Assembly: GCA_022562155.1 (NCBI GenBank)
Contig: JADFPV010000003.1
Location: forward strand, 412 to 64,411
Direction of reading: 5' to 3'
DNA from: Chloroflexota bacterium
Lineage (GTDB): Bacteria > Chloroflexota > Dehalococcoidia > DSTF01 > RBG-16-68-14
Length of the DNA stretch: 64,000 nucleotides
Every line of letters begins with the position of its first letter. Position 1 is the stretch's first letter. Position numbers and translations under genes: made by a program. This document shows positions 2,850 to 56,061 of this stretch, piece by piece. Under the pieces are notes generated by a model that had not been told where the DNA came from, searched no databases, and saw nothing but the letters and a program-made list of their open reading frames with translations.

Positions 2850-3095
2850 GGGGTACTACTCACTGGCGTCACGCCCGACGCATGCGCGTGCCCTCTGGGC
2901 ACGGGCGCCGTCCTTGGCGATTATCTCAAGATGAGGCCCGTGCCAGTGACTGGTGGCGAGGATCTGACACGGGCCGCAGGTTCAGTACTCGGTAGGAGGT
3001 CCTTTCCTATTAAGTTCTGCGTCCTGCACTACGTATAGTAAGGGAATGGGGCATGTAGGAGCAAGCGCCCACACTTATGATCAGTTGAATGGCCT

Positions 3096-3509
3096 ATGTC
3101 AACCAGCTATAATTGCCGAACCGTGAACGAACCCCGTTCCCCGCTGGATCCCGTCGCCTGCGGCCGATGTGAGGCCGTCTGTGAGATCGACGACAACTTC
3201 TGCCGCAAGTGCGGGTTGTCGCTTCGGGTCAGCGAGAACCTCCCTTCAGTACGGTCCAGTTCGCTCCCGGTCATCAGGCAACCGTCTGTGCCCGCCGTCG
3301 TCGTGCGCGGCGCCGCGTTCGTCGCCGCTGGAAAGATCGCGGAGATCATCGCCAGGCGCATGGTGCGCAGCGTGTTCCAGCGCAGCAACGGCTCCAAGAA
3401 CCTACCGGCCACGGCGAAACAGGGCGAGGTCGTCCCACGGGATGACATGGCGGAGACCACGGTGATCAGCGAAACGCTCCTGACGCGTCGAATTCATTTC
3501 CGCCGCTAG
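3096..3509 (+). CDS. hypothetical zinc-ribbon protein
   Basis: CGRCEAVC...CRKCG double CxxC zinc-ribbon at the N-terminus. No other recognisable domain. Confidence 0.3.
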   Translation: MSTSYNCRTVNEPRSPLDPVACGRCEAVCEIDDNFCRKCGLSLRVSENLPSVRSSSLPVIRQPSVPAVVVRGAAFVAAGKIAEIIARRMVRSVFQRSNGSKNLPATAKQGEVVPRDDMAETTVISETLLTRRIHFRR

Positions 3510-13095: not shown

Positions 13096-13139
13096 GGATA
13101 GGAGGTGATACGCAGAGCGCGCGGAGCGACGCGAGTCAC

Positions 13140-13340
13140 GGTAGAGTAAGCGCCAGATCCCGGCCACGCTGGTGAAACCAGGCAGTCGGGATGACGAGGA
13201 GGAGGTCTATCGAATCATTCGGCGGATGGCCTCCCGGCAAGTACAGTCGTCATGGCCGGTACAAACCAGGGGTGCAAATCCCTGCCAAAAAGCCGTCCAA
13301 CGTACCGGGGGAAACTGCAACCCCTGCCCCACGCAGGCCG
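13140..13340 (+). ncRNA. glmS ribozyme: glmS ribozyme (GlcN6P-responsive self-cleaving riboswitch)
   Basis: aAGCGCCAGAtCC cleavage-site core at 13149, and GACGAGGAgGAGGUcUAUCGAAUcaUUCGGCGGAUGgCCUCCCGGC matching the conserved glmS ribozyme core. Sits directly 5' of glmS. Confidence 0.7.
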
Positions 13341-13436: not shown

Positions 13437-15281
13437 ATGTGCGGCATCATTGGGTACGCGGGCACGCGCCAGGCCAGTCCACTGCTGGTGGAAGGCCTGC
13501 AACGGCTCGAGTACCGCGGATACGACAGCGCCGGCATCGCTGTTCTCGACAGCGACGGCCAGCTACACGTCAAGAAACAGCAGGGCAAACTCGCGAAGCT
13601 GACAGCCAGCCTGGAGGGCGTGCATCCGCCGGGCACGATTGGGCTGGCGCACACGCGTTGGGCGACCCACGGCAAGCCTTCGGACGAGAACGCGCATCCT
13701 CAGCAGGACTGCAGTCAGGAGGTGGCGGTCGTCCACAACGGCATCGTCGAGAATTACCTCGACCTCGGCCAGGAGTTGATGGCGCAGGGCCATGGGCTAA
13801 CATCGGAGACCGATACTGAGGTCATCGCCCATCTGATTGAAGCGAACCTCCAGAACGGCGACGAGCTACACGAGGCCCTACGGCACGCCATTCAGCGCAT
13901 CGAAGGCTCTCATGCGATCGTGGCACTCACGAAGAACGATCCGGACCGCCTCGTGGCGGCGCGTGTGGGCAATGCGGGCGGCGTGGTCATCGGCTACGGC
14001 GAAAACGAACACTTCATCGCGAGCGACCTGCCGGCGCTCTTACCCGAAACACACAGGGTAGTCTTCCTCGACGACGGCGAGCTAGTGGAGCTGACACGCG
14101 AGAGTGTGCGCTACTGGGACGCCGCCGGCGAACCGATCGACAAGGAACCGCAGACCGTACCGCTCGACCCCGTCGCGGCGGCCAAAGGCACCTACAAGCA
14201 CTTCATGCTCAAGGAGATCGTCGAGCAGCCCGAGTGCGTGCTGGACACGTTCCGGGGCCGCGTCCTGTTCGACCCGCCGAGCGTGCAGTTAGAGGACCTC
14301 GATATGTCGGCCGACACCCTGCGTAACATCGAGCGCGTCGTGCTCATCGCGATGGGCACGAGCCTGCACGCGGCGATGGTCGGCCGGCGCTACTTCGAGG
14401 AGCTGGCTGGGCTGCCGGCTGAGGTCGACTACGCATCGGAGTTCCGCTACCGCAGTGCCATCGTCGGACCGGAGACGCTCGTCGTAAGCGTTGCGCAGTC
14501 CGGCGAAACCGTCGATACGCTGGAAGCGATGCAGGAAGCGCAGCGGGCCGGCTCGCCGCAGATCACGATCTGCAATACGCCGGGCGCGCAGTCGACCCGA
14601 GTCGCGGACGCGACGGTCTATACCCGCTGCGGGCCGGAGATCAGCGTGGCGAGCAGCAAGACGCTGACGGCGTCGATGATCGCGCTCTACCTGCTCGCGT
14701 GCCACATCGGCCGCGTGCGCGGGCGCCTGGACGAAACCCAACTGGCGGAACTGACCGGACCGCTCGCCCACCTGCCCGACCTGATGGGACGAGTCCTCCA
14801 TGGCGCACCCGCAATCGAAGAACTGGCGCACCAGTTCCAGAGCTACCACCACTTCCTCTTCCTCGCGCGCGGCCTCCAGTACCCGGTCGCGATGGAGGGA
14901 GCACTCAAGCTGAAAGAGCTGAGCTACATCCACGCCGAGGGCTACCCGGCGGGCGAGATGAAGCACGGGCCGATAGCGCTGATCGACGAGCAGATGCCGA
15001 CGATCGCGATCGCAGTCCGAGACGGCATGCGTGAGAAGATGCGGTCGAACATTGAGCAGGTGCGAGCACGCGACGGCACGGTGATCGCGCTCATCAACGA
15101 AGGCGATACCGAGATGGCGCAGAAGGCCGACCACGTCATCGAAGTGCCGGAGACGACGCCACTGTTGCTGCCGTTGCTGACGGTGCTGCCGCTACAACTG
15201 TTGGCCTACTACATTGCGGTCTTGCGCGGCTGTGACGTGGACCAGCCTCGTAACCTCGCAAAGACGGTGACCGTGGAATAG
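13437..15281 (+). CDS. glmS: glutamine--fructose-6-phosphate aminotransferase
   Basis: MCGIIGY N-terminal nucleophile, two SIS domains, full length 614 aa. Confidence 0.95.
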   Translation: MCGIIGYAGTRQASPLLVEGLQRLEYRGYDSAGIAVLDSDGQLHVKKQQGKLAKLTASLEGVHPPGTIGLAHTRWATHGKPSDENAHPQQDCSQEVAVVHNGIVENYLDLGQELMAQGHGLTSETDTEVIAHLIEANLQNGDELHEALRHAIQRIEGSHAIVALTKNDPDRLVAARVGNAGGVVIGYGENEHFIASDLPALLPETHRVVFLDDGELVELTRESVRYWDAAGEPIDKEPQTVPLDPVAAAKGTYKHFMLKEIVEQPECVLDTFRGRVLFDPPSVQLEDLDMSADTLRNIERVVLIAMGTSLHAAMVGRRYFEELAGLPAEVDYASEFRYRSAIVGPETLVVSVAQSGETVDTLEAMQEAQRAGSPQITICNTPGAQSTRVADATVYTRCGPEISVASSKTLTASMIALYLLACHIGRVRGRLDETQLAELTGPLAHLPDLMGRVLHGAPAIEELAHQFQSYHHFLFLARGLQYPVAMEGALKLKELSYIHAEGYPAGEMKHGPIALIDEQMPTIAIAVRDGMREKMRSNIEQVRARDGTVIALINEGDTEMAQKADHVIEVPETTPLLLPLLTVLPLQLLAYYIAVLRGCDVDQPRNLAKTVTVE

Positions 15282-30167: not shown

Positions 30168-30242
30168 TGGAGCCCACAATCGGGATTGAACCGATGACCT
30201 CGCCCTTACCAAGGGCGTGCTCTACCACTGAGCTATGTGGGC
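30168..30242 (-). tRNA. tRNA-Thr (anticodon GGU)
   Basis: Manual fold: acceptor GCCCACA/UGUGGGC, anticodon loop cUUGGUAa, T-loop GGUUCAAUCC, CCA encoded. Confidence 0.8.
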
Positions 30243-30313
30243 GCAGTATGCGCCAGAGCCGAACGCCCTTCTCTCTAGATTTTGGCCCTTCCAGCTTCCG
30301 GCGTCAATCTCAC

Positions 30314-30401
30314 TGGTGGAGGGGGCAGGATTCGAACCTGCGTAGCCCGTCAGGGCAACGATTTTACAGACCGCCGGTTTTAGCCACTCACCCACCCCTC
30401 C
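30314..30401 (-). tRNA. tRNA-Tyr (anticodon GUA), long variable arm
   Basis: Acceptor GGAGGGG/CCCCUCC, anticodon loop CUGUAAA, T-loop GGUUCGAAUCC, 88 nt. Confidence 0.8.
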
Positions 30402-30417
30402 GTAATTAGTTAGGTGG

Positions 30418-30493
30418 TGGAGCCCGCGAGGGGATTCGAACCCACTAACCTGTCGATTACAAATCGACTGCGCTACCATTGCGCCACGCGGGC
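30418..30493 (-). tRNA. tRNA-Thr (anticodon UGU)
   Basis: Acceptor GCCCGCG/CGCGGGC, anticodon stem GUCGA/UCGAC with loop UUUGUAA, T-loop GGUUCGAAUCC. Confidence 0.8.
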
Positions 30494-43508: not shown

Positions 43509-44969
43509 TCACGAGCGTCGCGAGACGGATGGCACGGTTTCCAGCCACTCGACCTCGTCGCGGTCGCGGCCTCCCGCAGGCTCCAGAGCCAGCTTGTCCA
43601 TTTGCAGTGGTACCGGGATCGGGTAGTCCCCAGTGAAGCAAGCGAGGCAGGACTTGTCCTTCGGCGAGCCGATGGCCTCGATCAGACCGTCCACGCTCAG
43701 GTAGCCCAGTGTGTCCGCGCCGATATGCTCTCGGATCTCCTCGACGTCGTTCAGTCGTCCAGCGATCAGCTCCCAGCGGGTCCCAAAATCGATGCCGAAG
43801 AAGCACGGCGAGATGATCGGTGGGAACGTGATGCGCATGTGCACTTCCTTCGCGCCCGCCTTGCGAAGCATCGCCACGACGCGCGGCGTGGTCGTGGCGC
43901 GCACGATGCTGTCGTCCACGAGGATCACGCGCCGTCCTTCGAGCAGCTCCGGCAGCGGGTTGTACTTGAGCTGAACGCCCATTTCGCGGATACGCTGGTC
44001 GGGCTGAATGAATGTGCGGCCGACGTAGCGGTTTTTCACCAGCCCCTCAACGAAGGGGATGCCCGATTCCTGCGCATAGCCCACAGCAGCAGCGGTCGCG
44101 GAGTCTGGCACGCCGATGACGATGTCCGCATCGAGCGGATGCTCGCGCGCCAACTGCGCGCCAAGCTCCATTCGCACCGGATAGATGAGCTTGCCGTTGA
44201 TCACGCTGTCCGGCCGCGCGAAATAGACGTACTCGAAGATGCAAAACGCGCTCTTCGGTTCGGCGGCCTGGAAGCTCTCGACGCCGTCCTCCGTGATACG
44301 TACGACTTCTCCCGGCTCAAGTTCGCGCACGAACGTGGCGCCCATATGGTCGAATGCGCAACTCTCCGACGCGACGACCCAGCCACCATCGATCGTCCCG
44401 AGGCAGAGCGGCCGGTTGCCCATCGGGTCGCGCGCCGCCATCAGCTCCTTCGTGGTCAGCACGACGAGCGAATAGGAGCCGCTCAAGCGTCGCATGAGGT
44501 GCGTCCAGCGCTCCTCCCATGTTGTCCCCGGTGCGTTTATCAGCGCCTGCGAGATCACTTCTGAGTCTGTGCCGGTTCTGAACTCGATACCCTGCTCCTC
44601 TAGGTCGGTGCGCAGGACAGCCGCGTTCACCAGATTGCCGTTGTGGCCCAGCGCGAGCGTTTCATCCGCGACCTCGATCTGGCAAGGCTGGGCGTTTTCT
44701 ACGCCGCTGGAGCCGGTGGTGGAGTAGCGCGTGTGGCCGATGGCCATCTTGCCGGGAAGGGAACGAAGGTCGTCTTCATCGAAGACCTGCGAAACCAGGC
44801 CCATGCCCGTCTTGACGTAGAGGCGTCTGTCGTTAGCTGAGGCGATCCCCGCGCTCTCTTGCCCTCGATGCTGCAGCGCGTAGAGACCGTAGAAGGTGAT
44901 TCTTGCGACGTCTTCGCCAGGTGCGAACACCCCAAACACGCCGCAGGACTCTCGAAGAGTCTCGCTCAA
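43509..44969 (-). CDS. purF: amidophosphoribosyltransferase
   Basis: MSETLRESCGVFGVFAP N-terminal Cys nucleophile. PRT domain. Confidence 0.9.
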   Translation of the reverse strand: MSETLRESCGVFGVFAPGEDVARITFYGLYALQHRGQESAGIASANDRRLYVKTGMGLVSQVFDEDDLRSLPGKMAIGHTRYSTTGSSGVENAQPCQIEVADETLALGHNGNLVNAAVLRTDLEEQGIEFRTGTDSEVISQALINAPGTTWEERWTHLMRRLSGSYSLVVLTTKELMAARDPMGNRPLCLGTIDGGWVVASESCAFDHMGATFVRELEPGEVVRITEDGVESFQAAEPKSAFCIFEYVYFARPDSVINGKLIYPVRMELGAQLAREHPLDADIVIGVPDSATAAAVGYAQESGIPFVEGLVKNRYVGRTFIQPDQRIREMGVQLKYNPLPELLEGRRVILVDDSIVRATTTPRVVAMLRKAGAKEVHMRITFPPIISPCFFGIDFGTRWELIAGRLNDVEEIREHIGADTLGYLSVDGLIEAIGSPKDKSCLACFTGDYPIPVPLQMDKLALEPAGGRDRDEVEWLETVPSVSRRS

Positions 44970-45183
44970 ACGTACCTCCGGGCGAGGGCCCGTGCGGTCC
45001 GCCGGCTTGTTTCCAACGAGGTAGATGCCGGCAGATCAAGTCTATCAGCCGCCCAGATTTGTCGCAAACCTCTACGCGTAACAGCCTGCTGCCGAAGCTT
45101 AGCTTCAGCCAAGCTAGCCCGCACCTCATCAGCCAGCCTGCAGAAGCTTCGCTTCTGCCAAGCTGAATCTCAGATTCAGCCGT

Positions 45184-47670
45184 CTACTGACAGCTATGCT
45201 GGTACTGCTGGATCACGCCCATGATGTCGTTCGACAAGTCGATGACCCCGTCCGGCGCCGTCATGTTCCAGACGTTCGGGCCGGTCGATGGGCCGCGGTC
45301 GAAGTTGACGTCGTAGGTCGGCTCTGTACCCGTCGGCGCGTAGTGGATGATCACGCCGAAGATGTCGTTCGTAAGGTCAATGATCTGGTCCGGTGGCCCG
45401 CCGCCCCCTCCTAGCACATCGTAGTAGTCGTTCGGGTTTTGCCAGTCACGCATGCCGCCTAGCATCTCATCCGGCCCGTTCTCGCGCTGGTCAGAGCAGC
45501 CATCGCCGTCCGTGTCCGTTAGGTCGGGGGTTGGTGTCGGAGGCAGAGGCGTGGGCGATGGTGTGGCCGTTGGTGGGGGGCAGTCGGACACTGAGCACCA
45601 CTCAAACGCTCCAATGTCACAGGTGGCTACGTTGTCCCCATTTCCGTCGACCGGTCGAGTCTTACCGCGCTGATCAGTGCCCGGTGGCGGGCAGTCGCCG
45701 CTGCCGGCGTCGATCGCTGGACTACCGATGAGTAGGGCGTGAGTCTGAGTCGGGCCGCCGTTGTTCGCTAGCGGACCGAGCAGCGGGTTAGCGTTGCTGA
45801 TGTCGCCAGCCGCCGAAAGGCCGCACGTGCCGTCGCTATCCAGGTTATAGCCTGCAGAAGTGATGGTTCCGGAGCAGTCGCTCGCACCGTTATTGGCAAC
45901 AATTGTGTTCTTCAAGGTGACGGTGGCGGACTGGAAGGTATCGATGCCGCCGGCCCTGGCACCAGCGCCGGTCGCAGAGTTCCCACTGACGGTACTGTTG
46001 TTGAGGATCAAGATGGCGGACTGGAAGGTCCGGATGCCGCCGGCCTTGGTGGAAGAGTTCCCGCTGACAGTACTGTTGTTGAGGGTCAACGTGGCGAGTT
46101 GGAAGCTCTGGATGCCGCCGGTGCCGTGGTCGCCGGCGGAAGAGTTCCCGCTGACACTGCTATCGTTGAGTGTCAGGATGGCGGACTGGAAGCTCTCGAT
46201 GCCGCCGGTGCCGTAGTCGCCGTCGGCGACGTTCCCGCTGACGGTGCTGTTGTTGAGGGTCAGGATGGCGGACTGGAAGCTCTCGATGCCGCCAGCGCCA
46301 TAGCCAATGGTCGCGGTGTTGTTGCTGACGGTGCTGTCGTTAAGGGTCGTGTTGGCGCCCTGGAAGCTCTGGATGCCGCCGGTGCCGGCGTAGCCGGTCG
46401 CAGAATTGCCGGTCACAGTGCTGTTGTTGAGGGTCAGTGTGCCTCTTCTGTTCTCGATGCCGCCGGTGCCGTAGTCGCCGGCGGCATGACTGTCGCTGAC
46501 AGTGCTTCTGTTGAGGGTCAGCGTGCCTGAGCTTAAGATAGCGCCGATGCCGTAGTCACCGTTGTCCGAGCCATTTCGGATGGTCAGGTCGGAAATCTCC
46601 GCTGTAGCACTGATCATGATCTCAAAGACTCGGGAGAGCCCAGCGCCGTCGATGGCAGTAGTGGCAGCGCCAGCGCCGATGACCGTGATCTCGGTCGAAA
46701 TCGTCAGCTGCCCCTTAGACAGGAAGTACACGCCCGCAGGCACGCCGATCACCTGAGCGCCGGGAAGAGCGTTCGCCTCCTGAATCGCGGCTCGCAGCGT
46801 GCAGGCGCCTCCGGCCGTGGCGCATACGCCGTTGCCCTGACTGACGTCGTTGGCGTCGATCGTGCTATTGACGTTGAAGTCGGCCTCTGGTGGCGGTGTC
46901 GGCGTCGGTGTGTTGGTCGGCGTTGGGCACCCCTCAGGCGGGCACGGCGTCGGCGTCGGGGTGATGGTCGGCGTCGGTGTGATGGTTGGCGTCGGGGTGT
47001 CCGTCGGCGTGGGTGTGGCCGTTGGCGTCGGTGTGTCCGTCGGCGTCGGCGTCGGCGCGACGCAGTTGATCGTCAGCGAGCTGACCTTCGGTACGATGCG
47101 GGCGCCGGTGCCGGCCTCGATGAAGGCCGCGCCGTTCGTGCCGGCGTCCGGGTGTCCGTCCGGAAGCAGGTCGAGCGTGGCCGGTGAATCGACGGAAGTC
47201 AGCGGACACGCCATCGAGATCTCAACGACGTTCCCAACGTAGGTGCTGGTCGGCAGCGGCGGGATCAGGCCGGTCAGCGCACCGTGGATCAGCACGGAGC
47301 CGAGCTGCGCGCGCGTCACGATGACGGCGTCCGGCCAGACGATCTCGTCGAGCCCGGATGCCGTAGCTGCGTAGATGAGCTTGCCACCGAGTTCGATGGC
47401 CGTCTGCATCAGCGTGTAGCCGCCGGCGGGAATGCCGAGCGCATCGACAGAAAGCGTGAAGGAAGCGCCGGTGGGGACGCTGCACTTCGTAGGTCGAACT
47501 GGGTTGTCGCAATCGCCGCCCTTGATCGTGAGCACCATCTCCGGCCCGCCCGTCGCCGCGGAGGCCGTTTCGGAGCCACTATCTGTAACTGCCAGGGTGA
47601 AGATGACCGCCGCTGCGACGAGCAGCAGCGCCACGCCCCCCGTGACGGTCCTGAAAAGCGATCGAGTCAT
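45184..47670 (-). CDS. large secreted modular surface protein 1 (Ig-like Cys domain, PT linker, CSLREA-type motif plus parallel beta-helix repeats, Cys-rich module, dockerin-like C-terminal domain)
   Basis: Signal anchor [39 protein letters not shown]. About 10 PbH1-like repeats ([27 protein letters not shown]). [19 protein letters not shown]...CDIGAFE module. C-terminal [18 protein letters not shown]...[11 protein letters not shown]...[19 protein letters not shown]. Confidence 0.7.
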
Positions 47671-47734
47671 GGCGGCAATCCCTTAGACCAACAATGGCCG
47701 AGGATAGTGTGGCGGCGGTCGCCCTAGGCGGCTG

Positions 47735-47785
47735 CTAGCTACCGCCTAGTATGATACTCTCACCTTAGGCTGTCAACACAGAAGC
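47735..47785 (-). promoter_or_regulatory. sigma-70-like promoter TTGACA-N17-CATACT upstream of surface protein 1
   Basis: The same -35/-10/spacing arrangement is conserved upstream of all three paralogs. Confidence 0.45.
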
Positions 47786-47789
47786 CTTA

Positions 47790-47965
47790 CCCACAGCCCA
47801 GCAGAAGCGTTCCCGACCGAATGTCAGGCCTTCTGCCAAGCTGAATCTGCGATTCAGCCGTCTACTGACAGCTATGCTGGTACTGCTGGATCACGGCTGA
47901 CCCTCGGTCAGCTTGGCAGTTGCTTCGCAACTGCAGCCCGGCTTGATTCTCCGGCAATCAACGCA
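47790..47965 (-). repeat. conserved 3'-flank element downstream of surface protein 2 (copy of 51470-51644) containing three hairpins and a relic copy of the gene 3' end
   Basis: 47858-47895 is identical to the true 3' end of gene 1 (45180-45217). Hairpins gctgaatc-N3-gattcagc, gctgacc-ctc-ggtcagc and gcagttgc-ttc-gcaactgc. Confidence 0.6.
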
Positions 47966-50900
47966 TCACTGACAGCTATGCAAGTACTGCTGGATCACGC
48001 CCATGATGTCGTTCGACAAGTCGATGACCCCGTCCGGCGCCGTCATGTTCCACGCATCCGGCCCGGTCGAAGGTCCGCGGTCGAAGTTCACGTCGTACTC
48101 CGGCTCGGTACCCGTCGGTGCGTAGTGGATAATCACGCCGAAGATGTCGTTCGTCAGGTCGATGACCTGATCGCCGTTCACATCGTAGTAGTCGCTGGGG
48201 TTCTGCCAATCGCGCATGCCTCCCAGCATCTCGTCCGGCCCGTTCTCGCGTTGGTCAGTACAGCCGTCTCCATCGGTGTCGACCAAAGCGACCTCGGTGC
48301 AGTTGATCGTGAGCGGGCCAACATTCGGCAGGATGATCCGGGGATCCACGGCGAGAAACGCTGTGCCGCTCGTACCGGCGACCGGGTCGCCTTCTGGAAT
48401 CAGCACGATGGCATTCGAGCTGGGGCCAGGCGTGCAATTCATGTGCAGTTCAATTACGGTGCCCTCGAAATCGCTCACTGGAAGTGGCGGGAGGAGGCCG
48501 GTGAGGGCGCCGTGGAATACCAGGCCCGGGCCAGGCTGGCCTCGGACCGATATCGCTGATAGATCCGGCCAGACGATCTCGTCTGCGATGGACCCCTTCT
48601 TGTAGGTCAGGTTCAGTCCGTAGTCGATGAACGTCTGGACGCCCACGTAGCCTTCGGCCGGGGCTGTCAGCACATCCACGGATAGGATGAACTGACTCCC
48701 CAGCGGAACATTGCACTTCACCGGCCTAACCGGGTCATTACAATTCGCGCCCTTGACGGTGAGCGCCATCTCCGGCTTGTCGCCTGGCGGTAGCACTGGA
48801 GTATTCGTTGGCGTGGGCGTGTCCGTTGGCGTGGGGCACGGCCCGCCGCACGGTGTCGGTGATGGCGTAACAGTTGGCGTCGGTGGGGTGGTCGGTGTCG
48901 GGCCTACCACTCCGGACTCGAACGCTCCGATGTCGCAGGCACCTGCCGGGCGAGCGGCGCCACGCTGATCGGTGGCAGGTGGCGGACAGTCGCTGCTGCC
49001 GGCGTCGATGGCTGGGCTGCCGGGGAGCAGGGCGTGGGTGAACGTTGGCCCGCCGTTGTCGGCCAGCGAGCCGAGGAGCGGGTTGGCGTTGCTGATGTCG
49101 CCTGTTCCCGTGAGACCGCAACTGCTGTCGCTGGAGAGATTGTGGCCTAGAGAGACGACGGGGCCACCGCAATCGGTTGGCGAGTTGTCCGCAACGATGG
49201 TGTTCTTTATTGTCGCGTTCTGAATGCCACCATTTACGTTGCCGGCCGTATTGCCAGTGATCGTGCTGTTGTTGATGGTTGCCACACCCTTGTTGCGGAG
49301 AGCTCCGCCCGTATTGTCCGCTACATTGTTGCTAATCGTGCTGTTGTTGATGGTCAACGTGCCAGCGCCGCTCCCGCCGTCACCAATTCCGCCACCGGTG
49401 TTGCCGGCATGGTTGCCGCTGATCGTGCTGTCGTTGATGGTCAGCGTGCCTTGGTAGTAAATGCCACCGCTGACGTTGCCGGCCGAGTTGCCCGTGATAG
49501 CGCTTCTGTTGAGCGTAAGCGTGCCGACGACAGAGATGCCCCCGCCCGCGTTGATGGCTGAGCCGTTTCGTACGGTTAGATCGGAGATCTCCGCGGTAGC
49601 GCCGCTCGAGATATAAAACACGCCGCCAAGCCCACCGCCGTCGACAGCGGTAGTGCCAGCGCCCGCGCCGTTGAGGGTGAGATCCGACGAAATGGTTAGC
49701 TGTCCGGCAGATAGGTTGTAGGTGCCTGCTGGCACCGTGATTACGTCAGAACCCGGAAGAGCGTTCGCCTCCTGGATCGCGGCTCGCAGCGTGCAGGCGC
49801 CTCCGGCTGTGGCACAGATACCGTTGCCCGTACTGGCATCGCCGACGTCGGCGGTACTGTTGACGGTGAAACTGGCTGCTGGCGTCGGGGTTGCCGTCGG
49901 CGTAGGGCACCCCTCCGGCAGGCACGGTGTCGGCGTGGGCGTGGGCAGCGGCGTGTCCGTTGCTGTCGGTGGGATGGGTGTTGGCGTTGCTGTCGGAGGA
50001 ATAGGCGTTGGCGGGATAGTTGGCAGAGGACACGCTACACACGTCTCGTATGCGCCAATGTCGCAGGTAGCTGTGGCGTCCCCGTCGCCATCGAACGGCC
50101 GAGCAGCACCGCGCTGATCGGTGGCTGGCGGCGGACAGTCACTGCTGCCCGCGTCGATAGCCGGGCTGCCGGAGAGCAGAGCGTGGGTCAGTGTGGGCCC
50201 GCCGTTGCCGGCCAACGGGCCCAGGAGCGGGCTGGCGCTGCTGATGTCACCGGGTCCCGTGAGGCCGCAACTACCATCGCTGTCCAGGTTGTGCCCAAGA
50301 GAAGTGATGGTACCAGAGCAATCGCTCGCACCGTTATTGGCCATGATAGTGTTCTTCAAGGTGGCACTGGCGAATTGGAAGTTCGCGAGGCCGCCGGTGC
50401 TGGTGCCAGCATTGCCGCTGACGGTGCTGTTGTCGAGGGTCAAGGTGGCGGACTGGTAGATCTGGATGCCGCCAACAGCATTGCCGCCGCTGGCAGAGTT
50501 GTCGCTGAGGGTGCTGTTGTTGAGCGTCAAGACGGCGGATTGATAGGTCTGGATACCTCCGGTGGCCTGGATTCCAGAGGCCGAGTTGCCGCTGACGGTG
50601 CTGTTATTGAGAGTCACTGTAGCCGACTGGAAGCTCTGGATGCCGCCGGTGCCGTAGTTGTTGGGGGCCGAGTTGCCGCTGACGGTGCTGTTATTGAGGG
50701 TCAACTTGGCGGACTGAAAGGTCTCGATGCCGCCGGTGCTGTACTCGCCGGTCGCGGTATTGCCGCTAACCGTGCTGTTGTTGAGGGTTAGGGTGCGGCC
50801 GCTGGGGTTCCTGATGCCGCCGGCGCTGTAGTCGCCCGAGGCAGAATTGCCGCTGACGGTGACGCTGTTGAGAGTCAGCGTGCCCCCGTTGTGGATGCCT

Positions 50901-51346
50901 GCAGCGTAGTAGTCGTCGGAGGCGAAGCCGTTTCGGATGGTCAGACCTGACATCTCCACCGTGCCGCTAATAGCGAATACTGCGCTGAGCCCGGCGCCAT
51001 CGACGGCTGTAACGGCCGCGCCTGCGCCATTGAGGGTGAGATCGGACGAAATCGTTAGCTGTCCGGCGGACAGGTTGTAGGTGCCCGCTGGCACGCTGAT
51101 TAAGTCAGCGCCAGGAAGAGCGTTCGCTTCCTGAATGGCGGCCCGCAGCGTGCAGGCGCCGCCGGCCGTTGCGCACACGCCGTTGCCGGGACTGGCGTCG
51201 CTTGCGTCGGTTGTGCTGTCAACGGTGAAGCCGGCTGCTCCAGTAGTGCTTGGGCCGAAACTCGCCGGGCCTAGGAAGACGACTCCCAACGCGATGATTA
51301 GCAGCGCCGCGCCAACCGTTACGATTCTGAAGTGAGATCGAGTCAT
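47966..51346 (-). CDS. large secreted modular surface protein 2 (two CSLREA/beta-helix modules, PT linkers, Ig-like Cys domain, dockerin-like C-terminus)
   Basis: Start chosen at [22 protein letters not shown] (ATG 51344-51346, GGAGGA RBS). Two [15 protein letters not shown] occurrences. Same C-terminal 105-aa module as proteins 1 and 3. Confidence 0.7.
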
Positions 51347-51414
51347 GCTGGCAATCCTCCAAACCCCAATAACGGCCGAGGATCGTATCGAGGCCGTCGT
51401 CCTTCGCGGCCGGT

Positions 51415-51460
51415 AGCTGCCGCCTAGTATGGGCGTCTTGCTGTAGGTTGTCAACACAGA
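51415..51460 (-). promoter_or_regulatory. TTGACA-N17-CATACT promoter upstream of surface protein 2
   Basis: Conserved with 47735-47785 and 55665-55710. Confidence 0.45.
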
Positions 51461-51469
51461 AGCCTCACC

Positions 51470-51644
51470 CACAGCCCAGCAGAAGCGTTCCCTGACCGAA
51501 GGTCAAGCCTCCTGCCAGGCTGAATCTCAGATTCAGCCGTCTACTGACAGCTATGCTGGTACTGCTGGATCACGGCTGACCCTCGGTCAGCTTGGCAGTT
51601 GCTTCGCAACTGCAGCCCGGCTTGATTCTCCGGCAATCAACGCA
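51470..51644 (-). repeat. second copy of the conserved 3'-flank element (downstream of surface protein 3)
   Basis: Near-identical to 47790-47965, including the relic ccgtctactgacagctatgctggtactgctggatcacg. Confidence 0.6.
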
Positions 51645-54600
51645 TCACTGACAGCTATGCTGGTACTGCTGGATCACGCCCATGATGTCGTTCGACAAGT
51701 CGATGACCCCGTCCGGCGCCGTCATGTTCCACGGATCCGGCCCGGTCGAAGGTCCGCGGTCGAAGTTCACGTCATACTCAGGCTCGGTACCCGTCGGCGC
51801 GTAGTGGATGATCACGCCGAAGATGTCGTTCGTCAGGTCGATGATCTGGTCCGGCGGCCCACCTCCACCACCGAGTACGTCGTAGTAGTCGTTCGGGTTC
51901 TGCCAGTCGCGCATGCCGCCTAACATCTCATCCGGCCCGTTCTCGCGCTGGTCGGTGCAGCCGTCTTCGTCCGTGTCTGTTGGGTCAAACGTTGGTGTCG
52001 GTGTTGGCGTCAGGGTAGATGTAGGCGTCGGCGTAGCCGTCGCCGGTGTCGAGTTGAAGAACACATCGTCGATACCGACATGCAAGATAAATCGGTATAC
52101 GGCGATTCCGAAGCGCAGGCAGACTTCCTGTCCGATGAATGCGCCTGCGTTAGCTGTCACGAGGTCGTAGCCTGACGTGAGCGGATCTCCCGGCTGAGTC
52201 TGATAGAGATTCATGAGAACGTCTGCCGGATCTGTCGTAAATGGGTCGCTCAACATGCCTGCCTTAGTCACCAAGTCGGCCCGGAACTGCTGACTAGACC
52301 AGAAGTCTAGTGTGGGTGTGGTCACGTAGGCACCGGATATGTTCTTGAGATACAGCTGGAACTCTATCTGGCTGCTGGCCAGCACCTGACATCGGTACAG
52401 GACGAGCGTGGCGGGAGCGCCTTGGTTGGTCATGACGGCTTGGAGCCCTTGGGGTGGAGGTGCGACGAGAGGTGCGACAACGCTCGGTGCGCTCGCGCAG
52501 TCGCCCTGAGGCACCTCTGTGCCGGATTGGTTGCACCAACCGCCGGTAGGAGATAGTCCGGCGTCGGGAATGTAAAACCCTTCGCCATCCGCTTCCCAGC
52601 AGGGAACGTCTAAGGAGTCCACAACGCCTTGTTCAAAGTCGTCGTTTCCTCTCGGGCATTCTCCTGGCACTGGGGTGGGTATGGACGTTGGACAGCCCTC
52701 CGGCCCGCACGGTGTTGGTGTCGGCGTGCCGCTCGGTGTTGGCGTGTCGCTCGGCGTTGGCGTGTCGCTCGGCGTTGGTGTATCCGTTGGTGTATCCAGC
52801 GGGGTCGGGGGAATGGGTGTTGGCGGAGTCGTTGGCAGGGGGCAGTCGGGCGCCGGGCACCACTCGAACGCTCCGATGTCACACGTAGCCACGGTGTCCC
52901 CATCGCCATCGGACGCTCTAGGAGCGCCACGCTGATCGGCTGTTGGCGGCGGACAGTCGCTGCTGCCGGCGTCGATGGCCGGGCTACCGGCGAGCAGCGC
53001 GTGGGTCAGCGTTGGGCCGCCGTTGCCGGCCAACGGGCCTAGAAGCGGGTTGGCGTTGCTGATGTCGCCGGTTGCCGCAAGACCGCACGTGCCATCGCTA
53101 TCTAAGTTATGGCCGGCGGAGGTAAAGGGGCCAAAACAGTCCTGCGAAGTGTTGTTAGCGACAATGGTGTTCTTCAGGGTCACTGTGCCGTCACCACTAT
53201 GGATGCCTCCGCCTTCAACGGTTGCTGAGTTGCCGCTAACGTTGCTGTTGTTGATGGTAAGCGCGCCACCTTCAGAGTTGTAGATACCGCCACCGAAGAA
53301 GCCGGCTGAATTGCTGCTCACAGTGCTGTTGCTGACGGTCATCGTGCCGGAGTTGCCGACACCGCCGATGGCAAGGCCCCCTGAATTGCCGCTGACGGTG
53401 CTGTTGGTGATTGAAAGCACACCACCTACAGCGTTGCCTACGCCGCCAAGGATATTAGCCGAGTTGCCACTGACAGTGCTGTTGTTGACGGTCATCGCGC
53501 CGGAGTTGCCGATTCCGCCAACTGCACCATCTGCTGAGTTGGCGCTGATATCACTGTTGTTGATGGTCACCACGCCACCTGTGCTGTTACTTATGCCAGC
53601 CGTCCCGCCAGCAGAGTTGCCGCTGATAGTGCTGCCATTAATGGCGACCTCGCCAACTCCGCCGTTGCCGATTCCGCCACCCGCATTGTCAGCACGATTA
53701 CCGCTGACCGTGCTGTCGTTGAGGGTCAGCGTGCCGGAATTGCCGATACCTCCGTTCGCGTTTCCAACGGAGTTCGCGATGACGGCGCTGTCGTTAAGTG
53801 TCAGAGTGCCACGGTTGCTGATGCCGCCATCCGCGTTGAATTCCCAGCCGTTCCGTATGGTCAGACCAGAGATCTCCACGGTTGCGCCGCTTGCGATGTC
53901 GAAGATGCGGCTGAGCCCGGCGCCGTCGACGGCGGTAGTGGCAGCACCAGCACCATTGAGGTGTAGATCGGTTGTAATAGATAGCTGTCCCTGAGAAAGA
54001 ATGTAGGTATTCGCCGGCACGTCGATCACGTCAGAGCCGGCAAGGGCGTTCGCTTCCTCAATGGCGGCCCGCAGTGTGCAGTCTCCGCTGGCCGTGGCGC
54101 ACACCCCGTTGCCGGGGCTTGCGTCGCCTGCGTCGTCGGTGCTGTTGACTGTGAAGTTGCCTGTTGGTGTCGGCGTGAATGTTGGCGTGGGGCACGGGCC
54201 GCCGCAGGGCGTAGGCGGTAAGTCGGTTGGCGTCCCTTTGGGCCCTAGTAGGTCGAAGGCGTAGGCGGCACCGGCGAGTGAGCCCCCGGTGTCTTCGTAG
54301 TGTGCCCCGACGATGACGGTGTTGCCGCTCACCGCCACGCTACGGCCGAACTCGTCTCCGTCTTTAGCGTCTGAGGCCGTCAGCTTGCTTACCTCACCCC
54401 AGTTGTTCAGGCCGCCCTCGTCGCGACCGAACACGTAGGCGGCGCCGGAGGTCGCTGCTTGGAACTGATTCTCGCGGTTGGCTCCCACTACGGCGCTGTC
54501 GCCGTTCAAGGCGACGCTCACTCCGAAGTGACCGGATGCGTTCGGAGAAGAAGCCACCAGCTTCTTGACCTCGCCCCAGTTGTCGGCACCACCTTCATCA

Positions 54601-55595
54601 CGGACGAATACATAGGCCGCTCCGGACTGCGTAATTACGCCGGTATCGAGTCTCGCCCCCACGATGGCCGTGTTACTGTCGATCGCAACGCTCTCGCCGA
54701 AATTGGCACTAAAGCTGGCATCGGAGGCGACCAGCCGCTTCACCTCGCCCCAATTGTCTGTTCCGCCCTCATCGCGACCGAACACGTAGGCTGCTCCCGC
54801 ATTGCCGGCTTCGGTATCCTCGATCGCCGCCCCGACGACGGCGTTGTCGCCACTGACGGCGACACCAGAGCCGAACCTGGCATCAGCGTGGGCGATGGAT
54901 GGGGTGAGCTTCTGGACCTGGCCCCAGTTGCCTGCACCGCCCTGGTCGCGGTCGAAGACATAGGCTGCGCCGGCATCGCTGCCCCCGGCATCCTCTCTCC
55001 GCGCCCCGACAACGATCGTTTCGCCGCCGATCGCAACGCTCCAACCGAACTCGTCGCCGGCCTGAGCGTCGGAGGCGGTGAGCTTCTTGTTCTCGCCCCA
55101 GTTGTCCGCGCCGCCCTCGTTGCGTTCGTAAACGTAGACCGCCCCGGAATCGCTGCCCCCTGTATCGTGATCACGTGCCCCAACGACGACGGTATCGCCG
55201 CTGATCGACACGCTGTAACCGAACTGGTCGCCAGCCTGTGCATCGGAAGCGGTGAGCTTCTCTACCTCGCCCCAGTTATTTATCCCACCAACATCCCGCT
55301 GGAAAACGTAGGCGGCACCGGCGTTAGCGCCTCCCGCATCATCACCGAATGCCGCCACGACAGCGGTGTCCCCGCTGACAGCCACGCTGCCGCCGAAGCG
55401 TTGGAGTGTATGCCCATCGGAGGCGAGGAGCTTTCTCACCTCGCTCAGCTGCGCCGCCTCGGCGCTCTGCGGCACAGGCCTAAGGCCGGCCGCGCCAAAC
55501 AGCACTCCGGCCGCGATCATGAACATGAACGCGGCGATCGCGGCACGCACCAGGAATGGCACGTTCGTGACGGTCCTGAGTAGCGATCGAGCCAT
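51645..55595 (-). CDS. large secreted modular surface protein 3 (FG-GAP beta-propeller repeats, CSLREA/beta-helix module, PT linker, jelly-roll-like domain, dockerin-like C-terminus)
   Basis: Start at MARSLLRTVTNVPFLVRAAIAAFMFMIAAGV (ATG 55593-55595). About 7 FG-GAP-like repeats (FG.SVA..GD..VVGA.....G..SGAAYVF). CTLRAAIEEANALAG. Shared C-terminal module. Confidence 0.7.
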   Translation of the reverse strand: MARSLLRTVTNVPFLVRAAIAAFMFMIAAGVLFGAAGLRPVPQSAEAAQLSEVRKLLASDGHTLQRFGGSVAVSGDTAVVAAFGDDAGGANAGAAYVFQRDVGGINNWGEVEKLTASDAQAGDQFGYSVSISGDTVVVGARDHDTGGSDSGAVYVYERNEGGADNWGENKKLTASDAQAGDEFGWSVAIGGETIVVGARREDAGGSDAGAAYVFDRDQGGAGNWGQVQKLTPSIAHADARFGSGVAVSGDNAVVGAAIEDTEAGNAGAAYVFGRDEGGTDNWGEVKRLVASDASFSANFGESVAIDSNTAIVGARLDTGVITQSGAAYVFVRDEGGADNWGEVKKLVASSPNASGHFGVSVALNGDSAVVGANRENQFQAATSGAAYVFGRDEGGLNNWGEVSKLTASDAKDGDEFGRSVAVSGNTVIVGAHYEDTGGSLAGAAYAFDLLGPKGTPTDLPPTPCGGPCPTPTFTPTPTGNFTVNSTDDAGDASPGNGVCATASGDCTLRAAIEEANALAGSDVIDVPANTYILSQGQLSITTDLHLNGAGAATTAVDGAGLSRIFDIASGATVEISGLTIRNGWEFNADGGISNRGTLTLNDSAVIANSVGNANGGIGNSGTLTLNDSTVSGNRADNAGGGIGNGGVGEVAINGSTISGNSAGGTAGISNSTGGVVTINNSDISANSADGAVGGIGNSGAMTVNNSTVSGNSANILGGVGNAVGGVLSITNSTVSGNSGGLAIGGVGNSGTMTVSNSTVSSNSAGFFGGGIYNSEGGALTINNSNVSGNSATVEGGGIHSGDGTVTLKNTIVANNTSQDCFGPFTSAGHNLDSDGTCGLAATGDISNANPLLGPLAGNGGPTLTHALLAGSPAIDAGSSDCPPPTADQRGAPRASDGDGDTVATCDIGAFEWCPAPDCPLPTTPPTPIPPTPLDTPTDTPTPSDTPTPSDTPTPSGTPTPTPCGPEGCPTSIPTPVPGECPRGNDDFEQGVVDSLDVPCWEADGEGFYIPDAGLSPTGGWCNQSGTEVPQGDCASAPSVVAPLVAPPPQGLQAVMTNQGAPATLVLYRCQVLASSQIEFQLYLKNISGAYVTTPTLDFWSSQQFRADLVTKAGMLSDPFTTDPADVLMNLYQTQPGDPLTSGYDLVTANAGAFIGQEVCLRFGIAVYRFILHVGIDDVFFNSTPATATPTPTSTLTPTPTPTFDPTDTDEDGCTDQRENGPDEMLGGMRDWQNPNDYYDVLGGGGGPPDQIIDLTNDIFGVIIHYAPTGTEPEYDVNFDRGPSTGPDPWNMTAPDGVIDLSNDIMGVIQQYQHSCQ

Positions 55596-55710: not shown

Positions 55711-56061
55711 ATCGCTCTAACGTCACTGTCAGACGCCGGACTGTGCCACATCGCCCTCCTAGCTATCCTTCGCGCCGCATATGATCACTGGATCACCATG
55801 CACAACGCAGAATGCAGCGGCCTAAACTTCGATTCGCTTATCATCTCCCCTCTCCCTCTGGGAGAGGGGTTGGGGGTGAGGGCAGAGTCAATCAACCAAT
55901 ACCCCCGATTTCGCCACCCGCCACCTGTTGCCAAGCAACAGCCAAGCTCGCCGAAGGCGAGCCAATCAAGCGATCAAAGCTCACAAGCCAAGGCAGAAAC
56001 CGCCCGCAGGGCTAGCACGTACTCGTACTAACCTCTGCGCGTATCCGATAATGAATGCAGC

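Follow-up and report, generated by a model that had tools for sequence, protein, structure and literature searches.

The window, as we call the whole 64-kb stretch of DNA analysed here, contains three tandem minus-strand genes for surface proteins, g1, g2 and g3, whose C-termini share a domain of ~110 aa, the flexitail domain (NCBIfam NF041520). g1 (45184-47670; an ORF with an NCBIfam match) encodes 828 aa, ends in TAG and has an uninterrupted 3' end. g2 (47966-51346) and g3 (51645-55595) both end in TGA; their ORFs extend to 51472 and 55751, with likely ATG starts at 51346 and 55595, and g3 carries FG-GAP repeats. The flexitail scores of g1, g2 and g3 (144, 138.8 and 141.9 bits against a curated cut-off of 40 bits) and the coverage of profile positions 1-107 of 107 place all three proteins in the family. 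For g1, the match (E = 2.5e-42) is accompanied by choice_anch_Q and CSLREA, and across the three proteins the flexitail is joined to choice-of-anchor Q, CSLREA, beta-helix or FG-GAP parts. Inside g1 (45976-46528) and g2 (50411-50795), sequence repeated in tandem every 87 nt (every 174 nt in places) corresponds to the coils of the passenger beta-helix.

Predicted sigma70-like promoters of the same design (TTGACA, 17 nt, CATACT) lie on the minus strand at 47748-47776 for g1 and at 51426-51454 for g2. A 26-nt palindrome of operator-like appearance follows the g1 promoter (47724-47749, minus strand; CTAGGCGG..CCGCCTAG; CTAGGCGGCTGCT/AGCTACCGCCTAG) and begins inside its -10 box. g2 has an equivalent near 51400-51425; this copy differs at the palindrome and keeps its flanks, as does L051, a contig of 3.4 kb from a different sample that is ~90% identical overall. 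Downstream of the array, the flanking ORFs scanned include purF, purM and purH. Elsewhere in the window, a glmS ribozyme/riboswitch (Rfam RF00234, 83.6 bits) lies on the plus strand at 13138-13309, just upstream of a 614-aa ORF (13437-15281) that is presumably glmS, and a cluster of three tRNAs occupies 30171-30493 on the minus strand.

Repeated gene ends after g2 and g3

Read in gene sense, g2 and g3 close with ...GGC GTGATCCAGCAGTAC(CAG/TTG)CATAGCTGTCAG TGA, and the TGA is followed by a 71-nt block of three hairpins, a 33-nt copy of the gene end, two more stem-loops and the sigma70-like promoter of the next gene. The two orphan copies, referred to here as relics, occupy 47862-47894 and 51541-51573 on the minus strand; the first (GTGATCCAGCAGTACCAGCATAGCTGTCAGTAG, 10 codons plus TAG) is the same as the end of g1. 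Downstream of g1 itself, the gene end, its TAG, a hairpin that we term A and a short hairpin B are directly joined, which represents the uninterrupted state. In the g2 and g3 flanks, ACG lies between the relic and hairpin A.

A 31-mer from the gene end (GTGATCCAGCAGTACCAGCATAGCTGTCAGT) is present five times in the window, where shuffled sequence would give 0: three at the genuine ends (45186-45216, 47968-47998 with 2 mismatches, and 51647-51677) and two at the relics (47864-47894 and 51543-51573). The g2 copy differs from the others solely by a change of CA to TT. A 73-nt pattern comprising the insert and the GA of the TGA stop has exactly two copies, 100% identical (47895-47967 and 51574-51646), again with 0 expected, and these counts together exclude chance.

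The earlier note on this DNA had recognised a TAG-ended relic of a gene end downstream of genes 2 and 3, flanks of ~32 nt duplicated around a hairpin-rich insert, and a regenerated stop. All of this holds: relic, TAG and the GCTGAATC hairpin reproduce the uninterrupted g1 state, the flanks are a direct duplication of the gene end, and the translated copy acquires its new TGA where the repeat meets the insert. The note had further placed 38-nt stretches identical to the g1 end at 47858-47895 and 51524-51561. The identity is real, but the second stretch lies at ~51537-51574, and 38 nt is an underestimate, the identity running to 45 nt for the g2-g1 copy and 57 nt for the g3-g2 copy. The note had named a shorter identity or mere low-complexity similarity as grounds for giving up its claim; the alignment gave an identity longer than it had stated.

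The repeat unit of end, stem-loops and end has a period of 104 nt; Tandem Repeats Finder did not report this unit, which is present in 1.3 copies only. When both intergenic regions and L051 are aligned, ~400 nt, beginning with the final ~200 nt of the coding region and extending to the -35 box, are 98-100% identical. The two copies in the window are therefore not independent but parts of one homogenised tandem-gene block, and the perfectly conserved insert is not thereby singled out, since the whole block, coding sequence included, is equally conserved. We accordingly dropped the idea of a special constraint on the insert, which the match of insert and relic to L051 at 106/106 positions might have indicated.

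Several known classes of repeat do not fit this arrangement. A diversity-generating retroelement (DGR) was rejected on the basis that no RT occurs among the flanking ORFs scanned, the repeat measures 32 nt as opposed to ~100 nt, and the only differences are CA to TT, which is not the adenine pattern. Integrase att sites, integron attC sites and CRISPR-like repeat-spacer units were set aside with no integrase or cas gene near and a repeat that is too short. Translational bypass was likewise rejected: with a unit of 104 nt (3x34+2) the relic is out of frame, and the protein would not be altered by a bypass.

Stem-loop modules around the gene ends

The insert, block H, lies between the stop codon and the relic on the minus strand (copy 1, 47895-47965; copy 2, 51574-51644) and consists of a TTGATT/AATCAA stem, hairpin B', CAA, hairpin A' and a final C. 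B' (GCAGTTGC-GAA-GCAACTGC) is found at 47916-47934 and 51595-51613, A' (GCTGACC-GAG-GGTCAGC) at 47896-47912 and 51575-51591, and the weaker stem (TTGATT-N7-AATCAA) at 47943-47961. This is the segment of ~70 nt in which the earlier note had seen two perfect hairpins; its length is 71 nt, and the weaker stem adds a third. Copy 1 folds with -28.1 kcal/mol (z = -2.1), and relic 1 by itself is unstructured (z = -0.1).

A third hairpin directly downstream had also been described, and this holds: hairpin A (GCTGAATC-N3-GATTCAGC) is present in all three copies (45162-45180, 47840-47858 and 51519-51537), each time paired with a B hairpin on the minus strand. After g1, the pair (45140-45180; -21.2 kcal/mol, z = -4.0) comprises A (GCTGAATC-TGA-GATTCAGC), TTG and B-short (GCAGAAGC-GAA-GCTTCTGC). 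In the g2-g1 interval (47801-47858; -27 kcal/mol, z = -4.2), A is followed by TTG and B-long (47801-47836), and in the g3-g2 interval (51479-51537) by CTG and B-long (51479-51515), where B-long is B-short carrying a nested CCTGAC..GGTCGG hairpin. A further minus-strand pair of the same design (A-TTGG-B), with no gene-end relic before it, lies upstream of the g3 promoter (55925-55962; GCTCGCC-TTC-GGCGAGC TTGG CTGTTGC-TTG-GCAACAG; -20.4 kcal/mol, z = -3.5). The z values of the stem-loop blocks thus lie between -2.1 and -4.2. The same region upstream of g3 (55847-55962, minus strand) also holds a CCCCTCTCCC-AGA-GGGAGAGGGG hairpin, like hairpins that flank the homologous loci L012, L025 and L050, and again no gene end precedes it.

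The imperfect stems of B-long (47801-47836 and 51479-51515) form G-U pairs on the gene-sense strand and A-C mismatches on the opposite strand, which hints that the structure of B-long matters in the mRNA. In a homologous module flanking a lysA gene in locus L023, the strand bias is opposite to that of B-long in the window.

Perfect hairpins are ~12-fold enriched near the gene ends (7.3/kb within 300 nt 3' of flexitail stops vs 0.63/kb elsewhere). Within the 64-kb window, the modules are confined to the surroundings of the three flexitail genes. In MAG SZUA-185 (QIFC01), modules of the same design also lie 3' of genes outside the family, namely a lysA-like decarboxylase and a fucosidase; in one of these modules, the B stem encloses a CCTGACC..GGTCA hairpin that matches the one in the window at 20/23 positions. 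The core 40-nt module, GCAGTTGC-GAA-GCAACTGC CAA GCTGACC-N3-GGTCAGC C, is near-identical in the window organism, SZUA-185, B85T3L11 and a B67T1L10 contig.

REP, BIME and REPIN elements are short GC-rich palindromes with covarying stems that cluster just 3' of genes in either order or orientation, and they are thought to serve termination and mRNA stabilisation; they are not known to occur with flanking 30-60-nt copies of gene ends. The window modules resemble them in having perfect 7-8-bp stems, 3-nt loops and covariation in the double hairpin, where compensatory changes affect 9 of 15 pairs, 94% of cells are paired and none of 500 shuffles was as good, a test biased by the copies having been chosen as hairpins. 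They differ in being flanked by gene-end copies and in their ends: the module starts with GCAG... and finishes with ...CAGCC, with no tag at the stems, whereas REPs are defined by a conserved GTAG or CGTC tetranucleotide beside the stem (PMC3733652). GTAG REPs sometimes abut or supply a stop codon (PMC3733652); here, GTAG is seen solely within CAGTAG at the stop of the relic, 3 nt away from hairpin A. We identified no RAYT gene among the 10 neighbouring ORFs scanned, which were housekeeping genes or had no Pfam match.

The stems are not followed by a U-tract, a terminator scan of the minus strand at 44800-52000 returned no site, and a canonical intrinsic terminator was rejected, there being no T-run after the stems. 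High-GC bacteria possess factor-independent terminators without U-tracts as well as tandem-hairpin terminators, and the modules share with these stable GC-rich stem-loops placed after a stop codon and ahead of the promoter that follows; they differ in that several hairpins stand in series and are conserved in both sequence and structure. Rfam 15 gave no gathering-score match at these sites in the window and none at E<=1 in 47600-48050. We read the hairpins as a REP-like or terminator-like family of this lineage; a role as terminators or stabilisers is plausible, and they probably act in RNA at the 3' ends of transcripts, closing each one before the next promoter.

Recurrence of one junction in related loci

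Beyond the window, we compared loci of ~6 kb. A protein-profile scan of species-representative genomes yielded 50 flexitail-end loci, nearly all from the Chloroflexota MAGs SZUA-185, B85T3L11 and OFTM331, and a protein-based scan of JGI metagenomes yielded 39 flexitail loci, mostly from more distant lineages. Stem-loops followed by a same-strand orphan end straight after the resident end, that is, the gene's own translated end, occur in L003, L005, L010, L023 and L038 and after the upstream family gene of L012 and L026. The layout is found in L051 and in three other MAG assemblies.

The junction is always the same, GGTCAGCC joined directly to GTGAT. The junction string GGTCAGCCGTGAT stands at 12 places (twice in the window, in L051, L005 and L010, twice in L012, in L023, twice in L026, and in L038), with a variant in L003, and the junction recurs in at least five independent assemblies. 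All 12 relics lie on the same strand as the gene, directly 3' of the resident end, and start inside the conserved GVI motifs. About 9 of ~58 sampled resident ends have at least one relic, and some loci carry two or three in succession. L012 contains three 63-nt ends (TAA, TAA and TAG) separated by two 44-nt double hairpins, a 107-nt unit in 2.6 copies whose third end has a different flank; L026 has three successive relics of differing end types (NHRCQ*, a 14-nt RCV* stump and NPGGCPALS*). Across homologous loci, relic lengths are 14, 33, 49, 63 and about 210 nt, and in L025 and L018 the double hairpin is present without any duplication.

More distant flexitail genes, including most loci of the JGI scan, have neither the double hairpin nor the 33-nt relic. 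Scanning the JGI metagenomes with the pattern GCAACTGCCAAGCTGACCN{3,4}GGTCAGC gave no match, so the contexts of the element were sampled through flexitail genes, with the bias that this brings. Exact-protein look-ups of g1 and of P0040, a small protein called from a tail fragment, gave no match either, and a search of the literature on flexitail in bacteria and on SZUA-185 found nothing relevant.

L051 contains an orthologue of g1 that ends in HDCS-TAG and is followed by other hairpins; its last four codons and ~65-80 nt of flank are replaced (3060-3135, compared with window 45140-45217). With the DNA on both sides of this differing tail conserved, the case is one of a recent swap and shows that 3' modules are exchanged within the lineage.

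Truncated or stand-alone tail fragments were also encountered (L044 2930-3087, L054 3001-3255, L071 1935-2147, L084 ~690-800 and L052 4001-4288), some of them called as small proteins (P0017, P0040, P0044 and P0050). The L044 fragment joins a signal-like start to the last 28 codons; L054 has an in-frame stop (QQY*HDCG); and the L071 fragment starts at GTGATCGAT of the first repeat.

Proposed exchange of 3' ends between paralogues

The relics and the resident ends that they follow differ mainly at silent positions. In ten comparisons at six loci, we counted 28 synonymous and 14 non-synonymous codon differences, the latter mostly at positions that vary across the family. L003 has 5 synonymous and 0 non-synonymous differences, including an AGC/TCG serine pair, relic 2 of L012 likewise has 5 and 0, and relic 1 of L026 shows an AGG/CGC arginine pair. 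Neutral decay of a local copy would be mostly non-synonymous; the bias therefore suggests that relic and resident ends diverged while both were coding, and that the relics are displaced ends of once-functional paralogues rather than decayed target-site duplications. The bias could alternatively reflect selection on the relics themselves. In the window, relic and resident end are identical or one codon apart, so this argument rests on homologous loci in other genomes. L005, where the relic is 34/34 identical to the resident end, and L038, where the two share an unusual GCTCCG, look like local duplications.

We hold with moderate confidence that ectopic recombination brought in the tail of a paralogue together with its stem-loops, that the old end was thereby pushed downstream, and that the arrangement then spread by gene conversion. 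In such an event, ectopic recombination or gene conversion would copy the 3' module of a paralogue, comprising the flexitail coding end, the stop codon and its own stem-loops. The left junction would be homologous and lie inside the conserved coding region; the right junction would join the base of the A' hairpin to the Val-Ile codons GTGAT(C/T), and the resident end with its native flank would be displaced downstream. GTGAT(C/T) at the right-hand break encodes the Val-Ile of the repeated GVI motifs (LGVIQQ or DGVIDL), and in L071 the break falls at the first dockerin-like repeat. The resulting unit of end, stem-loops and end may then have spread among paralogues, homogenised by gene conversion or unequal crossing-over, with the repeated end serving as the right-hand homology arm; unequal exchange would explain why arrays exist and why the two copies in one locus are identical. 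In the window, relic, TAG and hairpin A together equal the state seen at g1, which fits the relic as the former resident end and the TGA copy with its block as the newcomer. It is from these patterns that we infer which of the copies is the newcomer, that gene conversion spread the arrangement and that the stem-loops act in RNA.

The 33-nt class of relic could derive from the 63-nt class through slippage between two GTGAT repeats, in which case a single ancestral junction spread by gene conversion becomes possible. Recurrent hairpin-stalled template switches that use CGTG microhomology are possible as well.

Two known systems parallel the proposed displacement of gene ends. In Rhs/CdiA polymorphic-toxin loci, a new 3' module recombines into the conserved part of the gene and the old tip is displaced downstream, leaving arrays of orphans. 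All 12 relics similarly lie downstream in the same orientation and keep a conserved piece, and some form serial arrays; the orphans here, however, have only 5-21 codons and encode essentially the same peptide, no variable toxin domain, immunity gene or ORF between relics is present, and the orphans are separated by stem-loops instead of genes. Integrases that insert at att sites in tRNA or protein genes leave direct repeats of the last tens of nt of the gene on either side of the insert, with the gene intact. Repeats of the terminal tens of nt around inserted DNA and a gene that stays whole are common to both, but the insert here measures 19-81 nt and is not an element, no integrase lies near, and the repeat length is variable.

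The earlier note had instead suggested the footprint of a small insertion, perhaps MITE-like, or of replicative recombination. In a fuller version of the insertion reading, which we consider unlikely, the block of stem-loops is itself mobile, as a small REP-like or MITE-like element that is moved by a hairpin-recognising enzyme (e.g. a RAYT-type HUH transposase) and duplicates 30-60 nt of target at flexitail ends. The near-identity of the 40-nt module across divergent genomes in which the adjacent codons differ, the hairpin foot ...CAGCC that always forms the left side of the junction, the nesting of A'-type hairpins in the loops of other hairpins (B-long in the window, L007, L050 and L023) and the perfect repeats in L005 and window g3 would all suit an element of this kind. 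The duplicated lengths, however, vary (14, 33, 49 and 63 nt), copies of the module free of any duplication exist (L025 and L018), and terminal inverted repeats are missing, the ends of the block not being mutually complementary. Moreover, every duplication found is of a flexitail end, the module has no GTAG or CGTC tag beside its stems, no transposase was found in the 10 neighbouring ORFs scanned, and the synonymous differences in L003, L012 and L026 are unexpected for a fresh target duplication. MITEs proper, with terminal inverted repeats and short target duplications of fixed length, were rejected on the same grounds (14-63 nt here, and absent at L025 and L018), and a MITE-like insertion that left a footprint is not supported.

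Deletion offers an equally doubtful route, whereby the relics would be the remnants of whole tandem paralogues, each deleted from the upstream hairpin foot into the last codons of the next gene. The genes do lie in tandem arrays, the relics resemble bona fide paralogue ends with their own native flanks, and other truncated flexitail fragments are known (L044, L054, L071 and L084). Many independent deletions with two identical end points would nevertheless be required; the two near-identical 107-nt units of L012 arise more simply from unequal exchange, and the L005 relic is 34/34 identical to its resident end.

The constancy of the junction between GGTCAGCC and GTGAT would also fit a site-specific mechanism. 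A more far-reaching version, to which we give little credence, takes the hairpin foot ...GGTCAGCC as the working end of an undescribed recombination system: a REP-like double hairpin and its tail would propagate by displacing resident tails and leave ordered arrays of orphans, which, each having a GTG start and an arm resembling a Shine-Dalgarno sequence, might serve again as donors or be expressed.

In the window (47896-47912/47894) and at the same junction in L005, L010, L023, L026 and L038, the 3' arm and loop of A' place GGAGG, GAGGG or GAAGG ahead of the relic GTG, on paper a ribosome-binding site and start. That the relic units are functional, either as mini-ORFs of 10-21 codons read from the junction GTG with the Shine-Dalgarno-like GGAGG/GAGGG in A', or as silent donor cassettes for tail conversion, strikes us as very improbable. 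All open with a GTG 6-7 nt past the AGG-rich hairpin arm, nearly all still have an open frame and a stop, synonymous changes prevail among the codons that differ from the resident ends, and the end of window g1 equals relic plus flank, consistent with a relic acting as donor. Set against this, the bases resembling a Shine-Dalgarno sequence are tied up in a stable stem, the stop has been lost in L038, relic 2 of L026 is just 14 nt long, and the peptides barely differ from the resident tails, so that switching would gain nothing. The relic is most likely inert.

It is also very improbable that the duplication arose locally through replication slippage, or that repeated ends misled the assembly: the window repeats are perfect with a short period, metagenome assemblies collapse conserved tails and many matches lie on very short contigs, but the flanks of the first and second repeat differ, an arrangement other than S-S, and an artefact is unlikely given that the junction is shared by at least five independent assemblies and occurs twice in the window.

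What we describe is a recombination scar that recurs where the genes of a large surface-protein family end, beside REP-like stem-loops. In the MAGs sampled, flexitail proteins number about 10-20 copies per genome, and the scars reveal how this large surface-protein family of uncultured Chloroflexota is remodelled, with tails and stem-loop modules swapped between paralogues and the orphan ends left as a record of past exchange events. Short ORFs and "hypothetical proteins" at relics and tail fragments are accordingly likely to be scars and not genes, and the repeated tails explain why metagenome assemblies break at such loci. If the constant junction proves to be site-specific, it would represent a new route for small palindromic elements to spread.
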